From a bacterium (GTDB taxonomy: Bacteria; Zhuqueibacterota; Zhuqueibacteria; Residuimicrobiales; Krinioviventaceae), in assembly GCA_963693055.1 (NCBI GenBank), contig OY843751.1:2848001-2912000 (forward strand): a stretch of 64,000 nt of DNA, in the 5' to 3' direction. The translations under genes and the position numbers were made by a program. Positions within the stretch are counted from its first letter, which is position 1; each line of letters starts with the position of its first letter. Below are positions 9,869 to 37,400 of the stretch, piece after piece. Under the pieces are notes generated by a model. The model ran no database searches, was not told where the DNA came from, and was given only the letters and a program-made list of their open reading frames with translations.

Positions 9869-10144
9869 TTAATTTCTCCCTGTAGCTTCTTTTACTTTGT
9901 CGTGTACATTTCTCTTTAACTCTAAATATTTTTCTTTTAACTGAATCGGGTTTACTTTAAACTCGGGCAATTTTATTTTGTCCGAAATATCTTTAGGTAA
10001 ATCATTCCAAACTATTGCAATAGTAACGGCCCGTTTAAAGCCGTTACTATGCACAGGAATAAAACTACTCGGTTCATACCCAAGCAAAATAATTGTTGCC
10101 GCTTCAAATAAACAGTCTGTACTATATGAACCTTTTTCCATCAT
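9869..10144 (-). CDS. Small phage protein, DUF5659-like
   Basis: YSTDCLFEAATIILLGYE resembles the DUF5659 N-terminal motif. Confidence 0.5.
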   Translation of the reverse strand: MMEKGSYSTDCLFEAATIILLGYEPSSFIPVHSNGFKRAVTIAIVWNDLPKDISDKIKLPEFKVNPIQLKEKYLELKRNVHDKVKEATGRN

Positions 10145-11456: not shown

Positions 11457-11908
11457 TAACCTACCTTTTGCCCTGTGCGCCTAATGGCAAGGGTCAATTC
11501 ATAATTCCATTTATTCATAACAGCCGGGGCCAACAACCGTATGGGGTCTGACAAATAACGCCGGGGCTTTGTATATCTGTTTCCCTCATGTACATCTTTT
11601 ACATGCCCTGCAATACGTTCATCAAAGCCAATAGCTGTTAAATGTATAAAGTTTTCATATCTACCTAACACAGTAGTAAACCTAGCGTTAGATAAGTTTG
11701 ACGTTCTCCGGGGAATGGGTGTCTTGCCAATTCTGGAATCGTCTTTTCCTCTTACGCTTGGGTGTATGCCCGGCCCGGATATGTTTTTAATCACATCCTG
11801 CATTACTCTATCATTACCCCACACAACAGCTTTTTCTATCGCTTCGGGGTACATCTTGAGTATTTCCTCAACCTTTTTTGAGAAATTATTTTGAACGCCG
11901 TATTGCAT
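11456..11908 (-). CDS. Neck/tail completion protein (HK97 gp10-like)
   Basis: PRRTSNL and VHEGNRYTKPRRYL motifs typical of gp10-like proteins. Confidence 0.65.
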   Translation of the reverse strand: MQYGVQNNFSKKVEEILKMYPEAIEKAVVWGNDRVMQDVIKNISGPGIHPSVRGKDDSRIGKTPIPRRTSNLSNARFTTVLGRYENFIHLTAIGFDERIAGHVKDVHEGNRYTKPRRYLSDPIRLLAPAVMNKWNYELTLAIRRTGQKVG

Positions 11909-11909
11909 T

Positions 11910-12428
11910 TTATTCCTTTTGACTTAATACCACAAGTTGACCCACTTGGTCACTGGTAGAAAAATTAAACACATTTTTCACAATGTACTTTGTCCCGTCA
12001 TACAAAATATAATCGCTTGATTTGTTCAAAGTGGATAAATTCAAAAAAGCCCCGTCACTAACCCGGACGGTTCCGAACAATGCCAAATCACTCTCTTGAA
12101 TTTCTCCAATTTGTTCAAGTTGCTGTTTGTTTAATAGTCCAGACCCAACATTTAAAACCAAAGGCGAAAAGGTACCCTTGCATATTGTTTCTGTTGGTGT
12201 ACCGTCAATAATACCAGTACCCTTGCAATCCAATTCATCCGGGTTTAACCTGTGCCATTCTCGACTATATGAACCGTCTCGATATTCCAAGCAGGGACAA
12301 GAATCCCCGCCGGTCTTTTGGTTCAAAATAAAACTTTTACCATACGTCAACAGATTCACGCAAAACATTTCAAGGGGTGTCATAAACTCAAAGCCTTTCC
12401 CTTGAATGAATACGGCCTGATATAACAA
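11910..12428 (-). CDS. Head closure/stopper protein (true start probably about 12383, MTPLE)
   Basis: Synteny; CPC...CKGTG motif. Confidence 0.55.
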   Translation of the reverse strand: MLYQAVFIQGKGFEFMTPLEMFCVNLLTYGKSFILNQKTGGDSCPCLEYRDGSYSREWHRLNPDELDCKGTGIIDGTPTETICKGTFSPLVLNVGSGLLNKQQLEQIGEIQESDLALFGTVRVSDGAFLNLSTLNKSSDYILYDGTKYIVKNVFNFSTSDQVGQLVVLSQKE

Positions 12429-24221: not shown

Positions 24222-24446
24222 TTATACCCCCGCCGGTCTTTGTTCAAGGGTGTTTTCCCAGTTTTTAACCCGGAAACCCAAACGATTTAAAATTGTCGGC
24301 TTTTTTGCCGTGAACCAATCAGAACCAAGCCAGAAACCATTCCTTAATATTGACGGCTTGGAACAATACCAATACCAAGCCCCTGTTTTATCTTGTGCTA
24401 ACCAATTCGCATTCTTGGGGGCGTTTTTCCAACTTGGCTTTTTCAC
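24222..24446 (-). CDS. W..AP..A.W.AQD..G family phage protein, copy 1
   Basis: WKNAPKNANWLAQDKTGAWYW...WENTLEQRP. Confidence 0.7.
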   Translation of the reverse strand: MKKPSWKNAPKNANWLAQDKTGAWYWYCSKPSILRNGFWLGSDWFTAKKPTILNRLGFRVKNWENTLEQRPAGV

Positions 24447-24628
24447 TTGTCCCCCTTTGCCCTATGATGTCGACAAGTCCCGCCCTGTACCGTTGGCCGT
24501 TCTTTAACCTCACAATAACCCACGCTTGAACAAGTGGTAGGTTCGCCGTCTATTTCCGCCCGGTTATCCCAATGCTTACAGGTTATACAATTTTTGTTTC
24601 CACTCTGTTGAAATGTCCATTGACCCAT
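24443..24628 (-). CDS. Cys-rich small protein
   Basis: CITCKHW...GYC...TCRHH. Confidence 0.55.
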   Translation of the reverse strand: MGQWTFQQSGNKNCITCKHWDNRAEIDGEPTTCSSVGYCEVKERPTVQGGTCRHHRAKGDK

Positions 24629-24630
24629 TT

Positions 24631-24840
24631 TTACACCTCCGGTCTATTGATTAAAGTTTTTTGCCATCTTGGGTTTCCTCTTGATCTCTTGTAAAACTGG
24701 TACCGGCCTTTTGACCAAGTCCAGCCCAAAGAATCCGGGCTTTTTATCGCCGGTTCATATTCGTAAAAATATATTTCGCCGCTTCTATCTTGCGCCGCAT
24801 ATTTAAACAATGCGGGAACCTTGTTCCAGTCGATTTTCAT
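24631..24840 (-). CDS. Same family, copy 2
   Basis: WNKVPALFKYAAQDRSG...WQKTLINRP. Confidence 0.7.
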   Translation of the reverse strand: MKIDWNKVPALFKYAAQDRSGEIYFYEYEPAIKSPDSLGWTWSKGRYQFYKRSRGNPRWQKTLINRPEV

Positions 24841-25238
24841 TGTTTCGCCTCGTTTACACTGATTAACATTTTCGCTTTATTTTCCAACTCTACAAAATTT
24901 TCATATCTATTTCTTTTTTCATCAAATGGCATATTGTATATATTTTTTCTCGAATATTTCCCAGACCATTCAACAAAAGACTTAACCAATGCGGCACAAT
25001 CTCGGTAATATTCAACAGCCTTTTCACCTTGCGCTAATATATCTGCTGTAGGATGCAAAGCCCAACGCTTGACTAATTCAGGTTTTACAGGGCCTATAAT
25101 TGAAGCTGTAAAAAACCCACTATCAACATAAATACCTGAAAGAACCATTCCCTTTTTTGTTTCAAAAATTACCTTTTCCATATCATTTTCTGGCAAACGT
25201 TCCGTACACTCAAAAAACTCAAATAAAACAAGATTCAT
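24837..25238 (-). CDS. Hypothetical protein, DUF551-like N-terminus
   Basis: CTERLPE...VKRWALHP. Confidence 0.5.
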   Translation of the reverse strand: MNLVLFEFFECTERLPENDMEKVIFETKKGMVLSGIYVDSGFFTASIIGPVKPELVKRWALHPTADILAQGEKAVEYYRDCAALVKSFVEWSGKYSRKNIYNMPFDEKRNRYENFVELENKAKMLISVNEAKQ

Positions 25239-25242
25239 TTTC

Positions 25243-25620
25243 TTACACCTCCACCGGTCTTGACTCTAATGTATTTTCCCAGTCAATATTATTTACCAAA
25301 TTAGATGACGGGACACGATAAATAACCCCCTCAGATTGCCATATACCAACACCAATTAATTTCATTGGCTTTTTAGAATAAAAACACCATTCCCCTGTTT
25401 TATCTTGTGCTAACCATTTAGCCCATTCCGGGGCCGTATCCCACTTTGGTTTAATATCACATGAAATGAAAAATTCTTTATCAAAAGGAACAAAAACAGA
25501 ATTATTTTTATATGTACTCGTATAAATCCACCCGCCCGGAACACGTAAGATTCCATACGTACAAAATTCAGTCTCAAACCGTATAGATTCATGTAATTTT
25601 AATTCATGCAGTCGGTTCAT
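25243..25620 (-). CDS. Two-domain fusion: RVPGGWIY domain plus family copy 3
   Basis: N-half matches 35083..35274; C-half WDTAPEWAKWLAQDKTG...WENTLESRP. Confidence 0.7.
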   Translation of the reverse strand: MNRLHELKLHESIRFETEFCTYGILRVPGGWIYTSTYKNNSVFVPFDKEFFISCDIKPKWDTAPEWAKWLAQDKTGEWCFYSKKPMKLIGVGIWQSEGVIYRVPSSNLVNNIDWENTLESRPVEV

Positions 25621-25622
25621 GC

Positions 25623-26132
25623 TTAACCCTCTCTTTTTCTGGCCTTGCGCTTCTCGCTAGCCTTTTGCAACACTTCGGCAAAAGTTACCGTACTATCAAC
25701 CTTTAAATGTTCCGGGGCGTTCAACCCTAATAACTTGCACCGTTCCGAAATACACCATTGCACACCTGCAAGGTAGCGGGGGTCTCCGGGGATTTCCTCT
25801 AACCGTTCGCCGATCTCTTGTCTCGATCTATCAATTTCATGTACATCTTTTGAATGGGTTACCTTTTTCCCGGCCTTTGACGCTTCCCACGCTTCCCAGT
25901 ATTCCCGTTCAAGTTTGTTTATACGCATGAGTTCACGGGTGCGCTGTTCATCAATATTCTTTAACCCGTCTTTTTGCCATTGCGCAATTAAAAAAGCTAT
26001 ATCACGGCTAACTGTAGCTTGAGAGATTCCCAGTTTTTGAGAGATTTCAAATTGTATATAACCCTCGTTATACATCCTTGAGACCTGTAGTCTATCCCGT
26101 TCGGCTTGCGCTTTTGTTCTCGGTTTTCCCAT
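25623..26132 (-). CDS. terS: Terminase small subunit (N-terminal HTH)
   Basis: QFEISQKLGISQATVSRD HTH and ERCKLLGLNAP motif; first gene of the packaging region. Confidence 0.7.
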   Translation of the reverse strand: MGKPRTKAQAERDRLQVSRMYNEGYIQFEISQKLGISQATVSRDIAFLIAQWQKDGLKNIDEQRTRELMRINKLEREYWEAWEASKAGKKVTHSKDVHEIDRSRQEIGERLEEIPGDPRYLAGVQWCISERCKLLGLNAPEHLKVDSTVTFAEVLQKASEKRKARKREG

Positions 26133-26184
26133 GTATCACCTTAATTATTACGTTTATACACTATTGCATACACTCTTGGATATT

Positions 26185-26720
26185 AAAAAACCGGCCCGTT
26201 TCACCTTGTCCCCGGCCAAAGGTACAAGGCATTAATAGGCCGGTTTATATTTTAAAGGGCTTGACTGTCTAAAAATTACACAATAACCAAAGGAGTTATT
26301 TTATTTTACCAAGCCCTTTTATTTACACTATGCGGGGCCATTAATGAACAAAGTACAGATGTTCGACCCCGCCTATTTTATGGGGTTTGAAGCAGGCCCA
26401 GGGTGCGACCCTGATAATCCGGGGCAATGTAACCCGGAAAGGGCTTCAAACCGCCTGCCTAGTTCGCCGGTCTATTCCCGGCTGTCAACTCTGTTGTGGA
26501 ATCTGTCGTCACGTTAGCCCTAAAAGATTTAATAGGGTCGAAACCAAAGCGGTATCCTTGTTGTACTTTTTGCAGTTTTTCCAACTACTTTCCCGCTAAT
26601 CAACCGGCATCCCCGTTGGTCAGGTCTGCAAACCCTTGCAACAGTTAAGGTATCGGCTCCACAACTTACAGACTGCATCAATACCGGGAATCGAACCCGG
26701 TCAAGTACCATAATTGACGT
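26185..26720 (-). ncRNA. Candidate large structured RNA with two tRNA-like elements
   Basis: About ten inverted repeats tile the intergenic region; perfect T-arm CCGGG-TTCGATT-CCCGG at 26700-26684; ends in a hairpin plus U6. Confidence 0.6.
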
Positions 26721-26727
26721 TACAACT

Positions 26728-27000
26728 TTACATCAAAAAAGCATTTTTTTGAATTTCTCCCGCCCACTGCTTAAACGTTTTTTCTCTCAAGCTAATTGTT
26801 ACGATCATATTCATTACATCCCGCTTACTTTGCCCGACTAAAAACACTTTGCCGGGGAATCCACGTTGTACCATAACAAAAGCATTTTTCCTACTTTCAT
26901 AAAACGCTAACCTTATAACGGTTTGAAAATCAGTTGCATAATCAGTTTTTTTCATTCTCCTAATATAAGGCTTATATATTTTACGCTTTTTCATTAGCAC
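26728..27000 (-). CDS. Hypothetical protein
   Basis: In-operon ORF. Confidence 0.5.
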   Translation of the reverse strand: MLMKKRKIYKPYIRRMKKTDYATDFQTVIRLAFYESRKNAFVMVQRGFPGKVFLVGQSKRDVMNMIVTISLREKTFKQWAGEIQKNAFLM

Positions 27001-27523: not shown

Positions 27524-27718
27524 TTATTTATAACGTCTGTAATAAATATCTTTAACTGTACTTGGTGCAAGTTCCTCTTGCCTTGCTACCTCCTCATAAG
27601 CTATAGGCATATAAGGGTATATTGATTGTTTTTGTAAACGCTTTGCCACATCCAAAACCGCCGCACGTATCCGGTCGTACTTAATTCGTGTTGATCTTTT
27701 TTTTGGGGCTTTAATCAA
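27524..27718 (-). CDS. Small HTH protein, candidate late regulator
   Basis: YEEVARQEELAPSTVKDIYY HTH-like; first gene after a promoter/attenuator unit. Confidence 0.55.
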   Translation of the reverse strand: MIKAPKKRSTRIKYDRIRAAVLDVAKRLQKQSIYPYMPIAYEEVARQEELAPSTVKDIYYRRYK

Positions 27719-27740: not shown

Positions 27741-27843
27741 AATAAAAAAACACCGGCAACACTATAATTACTTATAGTGTCCCGGTGTGTTTATAAATAT
27801 AATAAATGCACCTTTTAAAGTCAAGTTTTATTTATGTTTATTT
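27741..27843 (-). promoter_or_regulatory. Sigma70 promoter plus proximal hairpin terminator, unit A
   Basis: TTGACT(27824-27819)-N17-TATATT(27801-27796), then hairpin and U7. Confidence 0.75.
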
Positions 27844-29275: not shown

Positions 29276-29377
29276 AAAAAACCGGATGCACTACAACAAT
29301 CGTTGTAATGTCCCGGTTTGTGTTATAAAAGATACGGAATAAACCCGGAAAAGTCAACCTTTATTTATGTTTATTTT
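29276..29377 (-). promoter_or_regulatory. Sigma70 promoter plus proximal hairpin terminator, unit B
   Basis: TTGACT(29357-29352)-N17-TATCTT(29334-29329), then hairpin and U6. Confidence 0.75.
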
Positions 29378-30971: not shown

Positions 30972-31019
30972 ATTTTCAACCCTCTTGTTTATTTGTTAAT
31001 CCCTTAATTATTACGGTAT

Positions 31020-36429: not shown

Positions 36430-37400
36430 TATCTCCGGTTCTCCATGTATTCCGCTACCTGCCTTTCAATATCCCCCGATATATCCCTGATTTCCCCGGA
36501 ATCGTTCGCTTTTTTACCCTTGCCCGGATTTGATGCCATAAAACCGGTTATAAGGTCAACCGTTTTTTCAATGCGTTCTTGGTTATACAGATAATCATAT
36601 TTTCTTATAAACCCTGAATAATATTGATCTTGCATAAAATTTTTAGCGGCCTGAATAACACCGGCCCGTCTTATTTTTACATTTCCGGACAGGTTGCGCA
36701 ACCGTAAAAACCTTGATCTAGTGAACTGCAAATCATTTTCCCCCAAAATTTCAATGATTTCTTTGAAAACTTGGTATTCAGGGGTAATAATATATTCATC
36801 ATTTGGTTTTTCCGGTTGGTTTGCTTCGCCTTGTGGCCCATCCGGGGGTGGGGGCGTTTCTCCCCCCTCTGTATCTGTATCTGTATCTGTATCTGTATTT
36901 GTATCTGTATCTGTATCTGTATTTGTATCTGTATGGTTGAACGCCTGTTGAACGTCTGCTGAACGTACGTTAACCGCTTGTTCTTGTTCTGCTGGTTTAT
37001 CGTTCAGCGTCTGTTCTTTGTCTGTTTGGCTTTTGTTTAGTGTTAATTTCTTCCCTTTGGCCTGATCTTTAATTCTACGCTTTGCGGATTCTTTTCCTGC
37101 ATTTGACGCTTTTACTGATTTTTCACGTACTTTTTCAAGTTCGCTTTCAATTCGATAGTTATACAAAAGCCCGTCTTGTTCCTCAAAAAACTCTAAAATG
37201 GTAGGCTTTATCTGTTGCCATTGTTCCGGGGTAACCTTTGCTATCATTGCAAGACGCTTATCATTGTTCGGAATTGCTTTTCCTCTCTGGTAATAGTTAA
37301 CCATTAACAATAAATATGCACCGCTTTCCAAACCGTCAAGGTGTGCCGTATCTGCTAAAAAATCCGCCATGTATAATTGCATGTATGGAATAGATGCCAT
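36429..37400 (-). CDS. Replication initiator, DUF1376/YdaU-like
   Basis: PYMQLYMADFLADTAHL...GAYLLL; internal repeats. Confidence 0.85.
   Translation of the reverse strand: MASIPYMQLYMADFLADTAHLDGLESGAYLLLMVNYYQRGKAIPNNDKRLAMIAKVTPEQWQQIKPTILEFFEEQDGLLYNYRIESELEKVREKSVKASNAGKESAKRRIKDQAKGKKLTLNKSQTDKEQTLNDKPAEQEQAVNVRSADVQQAFNHTDTNTDTDTDTNTDTDTDTDTEGGETPPPPDGPQGEANQPEKPNDEYIITPEYQVFKEIIEILGENDLQFTRSRFLRLRNLSGNVKIRRAGVIQAAKNFMQDQYYSGFIRKYDYLYNQERIEKTVDLITGFMASNPGKGKKANDSGEIRDISGDIERQVAEYMENRR
36868..36977. repeat. GTATCT/GTATTT hexamer array (about 11 copies) plus G(T/C)TGAACG repeats; probable phage origin
   Basis: Repeats lie inside the initiator gene, as for lambda O iterons. Confidence 0.65.

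Follow-up and report, generated by a model that had tools for sequence, protein, structure and literature searches.

The window (the whole 64,000-nt stretch of DNA that was analysed) is part of a single 6.5-Mb contig. The prophage that carries the locus is approximately 50.5 kb long and is bounded by a repeat of at least 40 nt of the tRNA-Pro(GGG) 3′ end; genes for an integrase, the large terminase subunit (terL), the portal, the major head protein and the tape measure were found in it. Between ORF 26728 and the ATG codon of terS (26132) lies a gap of approximately 595 bp, which a first-pass annotation had put at about 590 bp and had described as non-coding, structured on the minus strand and elevated in GC content. 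All three descriptions hold, and the GC content is 46.5% in the region compared with 37.2% in the prophage. Contigs assembled from three runs of a single sample, perhaps the one behind this assembly, carry an identical stretch. The features in and around the gap, with the modules lettered in the order of transcription, are as follows.

27745..27824, minus strand: nearest strong sigma70-type promoter (TTGACT-17-TATATT), followed at once by a long hairpin and U7 (z −6.5)
26728..26994, minus strand: gene for a basic 88-aa protein from a family without a name (20 K/R, 6 D/E), immediately 5′ of the array
26676..26719, minus strand: module A, tRNA top-half minihelix (MFE and centroid fold, z −1.9)
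26493..26665, minus strand: module B, 173-nt multibranch domain with a 9-bp closing helix (helix p ~0.9; z −0.9; orphan)
26466..26487, minus strand: module C, 22-nt leader hairpin, UGACA plus 5-bp stem plus GAA(U)AGA loop
26390..26459, minus strand: module D, four-way junction of 69 nt with the shape of a tRNA, separated from C by 6 nt
26332..26372, minus strand: module E, bulged hairpin (z −3.8 with hand-chosen ends; orphan)
26254..26319, minus strand: module F, 11-bp stem with an inner hairpin (z −2.8 with hand-chosen ends; orphan)
26185..26246, minus strand: module G, extended hairpin plus U6, predicted intrinsic terminator (z −3.6)
26139..26153, minus strand: operator-like palindrome, consensus CCTTAAT-N-ATTAAGG with 2 mismatches, overlapping the terS ribosome-binding site
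25623..26132, minus strand: likely terminase small subunit (HTH protein, phrog_645), with homologs directly before terL in L147, L148, L149, L153 and L154

The label terS is a fair one by synteny, because homologs of ORF 26132-25623 lie directly 5′ of terL in these five related elements; in two of the relatives (L147 and L149) similar terS-terL cassettes were seen. The host genome (G000, contig C1) also holds small elements with a repressor, terS and terL at 4.033–4.035 Mb and 4.142–4.146 Mb, and a related portal and major head gene lie approximately 110 kb from such elements. The protein of ORF 26728 matched no Pfam or PHROG family. Its own family comprises 66 clusters at E ≤ 0.001, shares the conserved motifs KPYIRR and VxVQRG, and was not found in the other 166 genomes of the phylum or in phage records. 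Its predicted structure (model pLDDT 96), a folded alpha/beta domain, gave no clear fold match (best Z 3.1), and a weak lead to L18 (score 0.84) was not borne out by fold searches. ORF 26728 is a real family, and no evidence links its protein to the RNA array.

All helices listed in the first-pass annotation are present where it placed them on the minus strand. The folding excess over shuffled sequences holds for the whole region, where it is moderate (z −2.4 to −3.6), but not for short windows. Two shuffle tests of the whole region gave z −2.76 and −2.41, and a third with a pair span limit of 180 gave −3.62, which tied for second among 45 windows of 536 nt (14 shuffles each) and had the lowest energy of all. 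Fixed 120-nt windows over the region gave only z −0.1 to −1.3, and 45 of 447 such windows in the prophage fell below −2. The excess was located in the 3′ part (z −5.2) and at 26380-26460 (z −2.95). Stems are intact across the region, with G-U instead of broken pairs, and these G-U pairs occur on the minus strand; this strand is itself G-rich, and the strand signal is hence weak. The stretch is most likely a transcribed RNA, since A and C belong to phage RNA motifs that are conserved and covary, and since minus-strand G-U pairs occur in the helices. Elsewhere on the minus strand, two 120-nt windows in the tail/head-tail region, 9961-10080 and 11801-11920, gave z −6.0 and −6.7.

Four features were absent from the first-pass annotation: a T-arm minihelix (26719-26676), the pan-phage identity of the hairpin at 26482-26466, a tRNA-shaped unit (26459-26391) and a palindrome (26153-26139). 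Module A, the minihelix, begins 8 nt past the stop codon of ORF 26728 and consists of an acceptor-like stem of 6–7 bp, a 12-nt GG-containing linker and a canonical T arm (GGTTCGATTCC), without a D stem, anticodon arm or encoded CCA. The T arm carries the GGTTCRANYCC motif of t-elements and abuts the acceptor-like stem. A was the sole match in the 6.5-Mb host genome of a descriptor that was drawn from A itself, and it was also the only match in the window, a weak one (10.9 bits, E 3.6), of a model built from three minihelices excluding A. The fold recurs with different stems in L159, L164, L024, L046 and L096, and in an alignment with six other contigs 4–6 of the 6 acceptor pairs and all 5 T-stem pairs are kept despite sequence changes. 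A pattern scan returned 49 loci in 18 distinct groups, most of them ordinary tRNAs; five groups (24 loci with two stem types, those of L159 and L164) are this minihelix, just past a stop codon. L159 and L164 were found with A's own T-arm sequence and are not independent for that arm, and the minihelices of L024, L046, L094 and L096 came from loci fetched for module C. At L159:1494-1535 and L164:1493-1535, in a gut mobile-element family of 24 loci, the minihelix after the stop codon is followed by a terminator-like hairpin. A was also considered as tmRNA (RF00023, including the two-piece form), but only the T arm matches (14 bits compared with 47) and the acceptor pairs locally; ARAGORN called no tmRNA in the region, and the host tmRNA was found elsewhere.

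Module C is a widespread phage hairpin. A pattern scan of IMG/VR returned 120 loci, 40 of which had short flanks, and approximately 1,300 matching stretches were estimated in that collection; the exact sequence of C with a leading GT was not present there. The copy described here has UGACA, a 5-bp stem and the GAA(N)AGA loop, its stem covaries among phages, and it stands 6 nt before a tRNA-shaped unit, within the 4–8 nt of the full motif. Eight of nine stem variants are fully paired at all four free positions, an outcome with a chance of about 2% for each variant. A tRNA on the same strand was found in the locus of 27 of the 99 distinct copies (none was antisense), and in 19 of the 99 it lay no more than 25 nt downstream. 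In blastn of phage records, C had one match within a tRNA cluster and another 5′ of a DNA polymerase gene. The host genome contains one copy only; the four further pattern matches in the phylum have imperfect stems and were taken as chance, and a search with C plus the first bases of D gave nine genome matches, namely three perfect stems, one partial stem and five that were chance-like. A stem-closed domain directly before C, as formed here by B, was not enriched among other copies (3/62 compared with 1–11/62 at control positions). A literature search, with most subscription papers outside its scope, returned nothing relevant on hairpin C or on such arrays. Six supplementary files of PMC10690425 held no match for C or A, and either may be among the unnamed candidates of that study.

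Module D has a 7-bp acceptor, a short D-like arm, a 6-bp arm with a 9-nt loop centred on CAU, and a T-like arm with the non-canonical loop GTCGCAC. It thus has the geometry of a t-element without its T-arm motif. When D is trimmed, the cloverleaf is the MFE fold (−31.8 kcal/mol, z −2.45); with eight more 3′ bases, an alternative 10-bp helix (26452-26443/26393-26384) wins (−33.9 kcal/mol, p 0.95), and the acceptor has p 0.05–0.96 depending on the context. During transcription the cloverleaf could form first. The geometry of D occurred in 10 of 5000 shuffles and at 16 of 6367 prophage positions. A 7-bp acceptor with an abutting 5-bp/7-nt arm, 4–8 nt after C, was found in 18 of the 96 other copies, compared with 0–2 of 60–89 at shifted positions; the other 78 have no tRNA-shaped unit behind them. 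tRNA-like units also stand behind C in L216 and L218. Approximately 150 nt after C, L216 carries a large tRNA-like unit with an acceptor, a canonical T arm and an expanded middle domain, which had no Rfam match at gathering score. As for a canonical tRNA (RF00005), ARAGORN and Rfam found none in the region, and D gave no match even at E ≤ 10.

The remaining modules are orphans or resemble terminators. For module B, the first-pass annotation had proposed a multibranch domain closed by a perfect 8-bp helix; the helix exists with p ~0.9, but it is at chance level (perfect 8-bp helices spanning 50–300 nt were found at 1–11 of 62 control positions), and the domain has z −0.9 when the minus strand is folded, compared with −3.5 for the plus strand. 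An AGCGG/CCGCT helix within it is present as sequence but is not among the pairs with p > 0.5. Modules E to G are closed hairpins joined by short A-rich linkers, without long-range pairing. G is plausibly a terminator, as judged from its hairpin and U-tract: its layout (ACCGG...CCGG plus U-tract) is that of the hairpins near 27786 and 29317, and it lies 52 nt before terS, although a simple terminator scan did not call it. G was also tried as DUF3800-III (RF02962), which scored 22.5 bits (E 0.045) where more than 43.8 is needed and lacked 53 model positions; no DUF3800 match was found among the neighbours scanned.

Searches for homologs gave the same picture. The covariation that the first-pass annotation had named as a check exists for A and C, which recur with compensating stem changes, but no homologs of B, E, F or G were found. 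In blastn of 50,697 phages, the whole region or modules B and D–G gave only C plus chance matches; 72,556 plasmids held no homolog of the region, and 167 genomes of the phylum gave four short matches, of which those inspected were chance or coding. The host genome has no second copy of the region or of B and D–G. Patterns for B and G returned nothing in IMG/VR, and a two-block pattern for B gave three matches in metagenomes, all chance matches inside ORFs; a one-sequence model of B, run without a positive control, gave one coding match among 150 other genomes and none in 50 virus records. Relatives were also sought by protein, which gave five loci for terS, two for portal and, for terL, none in IMG/VR and six other places in the phylum; the related prophages stand at 40–60% protein identity, and the array was absent from all protein-based relatives inspected. 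No Rfam family matched the region at gathering score, in keeping with the earlier claim of an undescribed RNA, and E ≤ 10 gave fragments only. GOLLD (RF02032) was not found in the region at gathering score or E ≤ 10, nor in the genome at E ≤ 1, a search in which controls also fell below the cut-off. ROOL (RF03087) gave no covariance-model match in the region and none in a genome search that had no positive control.

The slot before terS was compared with the positions of C in other phages. Downstream ORFs were scanned for 57 C loci: HNH, terS or terL follow at 8 of them, head genes at 4 and lysis genes at 3, and early genes follow at many of the rest; C also stands in early operons. In L024 and L094, the order is a RinA/ArpU-like regulator, minihelix A, C, further units and HNH, and in L097, L084 and L081 the corresponding array contains true tRNAs; L024/L094 and L084/L089 are related pairs and not independent. 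When the upstream ORF was scanned at 43 C loci, Q-type antiterminator genes were found at three (L029, L034 and L054). C therefore does not replace Q. In lytic phages, C was also found before tRNAs.

Directly before terS, G is followed by an AGTGTAT direct repeat, a weak −10 and the operator-like palindrome; the −35 is weak as well. This prophage contains all three perfect copies of the palindrome genome-wide and 6 of the 24 with two or fewer mismatches (0.19 expected); four of the copies have a near-consensus −10 box 4–5 bp in front of them. Other copies were seen at 31002-31016 and, left of the window, at 2843806, 2844568 and 2844689 of G000 C1; the palindrome marks start sites of strong promoters that lie in the accessory regions flanking the late operon at its two ends. 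A phage repressor probably binds there, and one distinct from cI, since no palindrome was seen at the cI/cro gap. terS is thus likely under its own DNA-level control downstream of G, and with an operator-like palindrome of its own behind the terminator-like hairpin, RNA antitermination would not be needed. This layout recalls the Ltr-type phages (RinA, ArpU, LtrC) of Gram-positive bacteria, in which a terminator is followed by repeats and a separate activator-dependent promoter just before terS (PMC3753634). Both have a terminator or a candidate one, repeats, and a separate promoter, here a candidate, before terS. Unlike the Ltr systems, however, this prophage gave no Ltr-family match among the proteins scanned, and the site here is a palindrome common to strong promoters, to which a repressor may bind.

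More than 1 kb separates the array from the nearest strong promoter (27824). This promoter and its twin at 29357 belong to twin cassettes at 27845-27745 and 29380-29280 (minus strand), each with an AT-rich upstream tract, a TTGACT promoter, a hairpin of 16–17 bp and U6–7; the inner stems differ between the two but remain paired (z −6.5 and −4.5). By their layout, these cassettes could be small RNAs of approximately 50 nt or promoter-proximal attenuators. Regulated read-through, if it occurs anywhere, is likelier at the terminator-like hairpin behind the 27824 promoter than at G. The first gene behind this promoter (27524-27718, minus strand) encodes a 64-aa HTH-like protein, homologs of which directly follow terL in related elements.

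We give about an even chance to a processed-array reading, in which the stretch fills the tRNA slot of the phage and is cut into small RNAs. The array is uncatalogued and made of two recurrent phage motifs, one tRNA-shaped unit and orphan domains. At least seven separately folding modules stand before terS, at a place that tRNA genes occupy in other temperate phages. We infer that these modules would be transcribed as one precursor; that the host would cleave it at A and D, which both look like tRNAs, by means of RNase P together with RNase Z or exonucleases; that hairpin C would mark or shield the start of D; that hairpin G would end the precursor; and that transcription would resume for terS at a regulated promoter of its own (26185-26139), which would make an RNA antiterminator unnecessary. 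Cleavage would set free the message that lies upstream, domain B, and D as a tRNA-shaped RNA, and the host genes for RNase P RNA and RNase Z both score over the cut-off. Our leading guess is that the released RNAs would serve as tRNA decoys against tRNA-targeting host defences.

The freeing of B and D by cuts at A and D is proposed by analogy with the t-elements of plant mitochondria, tRNA-like folds with a GGTTCRANYCC T-arm motif for which a role in guiding RNase P and RNase Z, and thereby in setting RNA ends, has been suggested (PMC1920247). Module A shares this motif; by contrast, the present array is in a bacterial prophage, A has neither D nor anticodon arm, and cleavage here is a prediction. 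Another related system is phage T4, in which RNAC and RNAD are extra small RNAs in the tRNA cluster (PMC3014915). Like them, the modules here would be small structured RNAs in a tRNA region, whereas the array is without a canonical tRNA and belongs to a temperate phage. If the processed-array reading is right, the tRNA slot of a temperate phage can hold uncatalogued RNA parts without any tRNA, two widespread and unexplained phage motifs are joined in one compact 540-nt unit, and the array would give direct access to a long-standing question, the function of the additional small RNAs found in phage tRNA regions. A more far-reaching version, which we consider unlikely, is that the array holds mimics only and no true tRNAs: tRNA-shaped punctuation would release B, a 173-nt RNA of a new class, and D, a bistable decoy for tRNA, the cloverleaf of which would be locked by 3′ trimming, and the ORF 26728 protein would be the binding partner in a late counter-defence.

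A different account, which we hold to be rather unlikely though worth weighing, is that the locus is made of relics and housekeeping elements: A and D would be decayed tRNA genes, C would have come along with them, E–G would be terminator or stabiliser hairpins, and the sole function would be to end the upstream transcript. The orphan status of B, E, F and G and the lack of excess in 120-nt windows are consistent with decay, as are the degenerate T loop and D arm of D, its loop centred on CAU as in tRNA-Met, and the real tRNAs that occupy the slot in other phages. However, the cut-down fold of A recurs with changed pairs in unrelated contigs, stems are intact region-wide with G-U rather than broken pairs, and C matches its motif perfectly and keeps the usual distance.

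The first-pass annotation had proposed one RNA of about 540 nt as a candidate. In the corresponding account, the stretch would be a large ornate non-coding RNA of a new class (this length, or approximately 255 nt for A-B-C) acting in trans like GOLLD and ROOL. Its size would be near that of ROOL (581 nt, PMC5737381), its prophage location in a tRNA-type slot would fit (PMC12286853), and the stretch resembles GOLLD and ROOL in being a large structured non-coding region. The lowest folding energy of the 45 windows, the terminator-like hairpin at the 3′ end, loop-loop candidates in B and a possible 9-bp long-range helix between A and C point in the same direction; competition from this helix lowers the T stem of A and hairpin C to p 0.46 each in the whole-region ensemble. 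We nevertheless regard a single ornate RNA as unlikely. Other, unrelated phages carry A and C without B; neither the whole nor B has a homolog in the 167 phylum genomes, the 50,697 phages or the 72,556 plasmids; and neither GOLLD, ROOL nor any other Rfam model matched. Unlike GOLLD and ROOL, the array is a modular row of closed hairpins, with nothing in E–G that pairs over long range and without evidence of pseudoknots or multimers.

The annotation had also considered a cis-acting antitermination or late-control RNA, and this claim fared no better. Here, the nascent RNA would modify the RNA polymerase so that it passes G into approximately 29 kb of late genes, either through hairpin C, which would offer the basic upstream protein a boxB-like site, or through a put-like fold. 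C is similar in size to the boxB hairpin, and like it is a short hairpin with a purine-rich loop; a nut site suppresses termination in cis with N protein and boxA. C often heads operons, the ORF 26728 protein is basic, a structured RNA stands upstream of a terminator-like hairpin with U6 and a long operon, as in the lambdoid nut-boxB and HK022 put systems, and no Q-type or N-type match was found among the prophage proteins scanned (30 per scan, a subset of the ORFs). We think this account quite improbable, as C also stands behind Q-like genes and before tRNAs in other phages and an operator-like site lies 3′ of G. N peptides are unstructured, whereas the upstream protein is predicted to be folded, and neither a boxA nor an N partner was identified for the array. 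The put RNA of HK022 is approximately 70 nt, has two stems and lies within approximately 270 nt of the early promoter (PMC9378689), in contrast to the much larger array (~540 nt) far from any strong promoter. The evidence supports neither a new giant RNA nor a new antitermination mechanism.

That the overlapping ORFs of 50–70 aa are real genes and the structure incidental is highly improbable, because the candidate on the coding strand, a 60-codon ATG ORF (26711-26529), has no relative among 5.8 billion proteins, no clear ribosome-binding site and an overlap with the canonical T arm of A, and neither it nor the three plus-strand ORFs matched PHROG or Pfam, an outcome in line with the non-coding status claimed earlier.

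Two further observations were made elsewhere in the window. At 24222-25452, two small ORFs share a common duplicated C-terminal module (70–76% DNA identity), and at 36868-36934 tandem 6/12-bp repeats, encoding a Thr-Asp run, lie within the replication initiator gene and mark a likely origin region.
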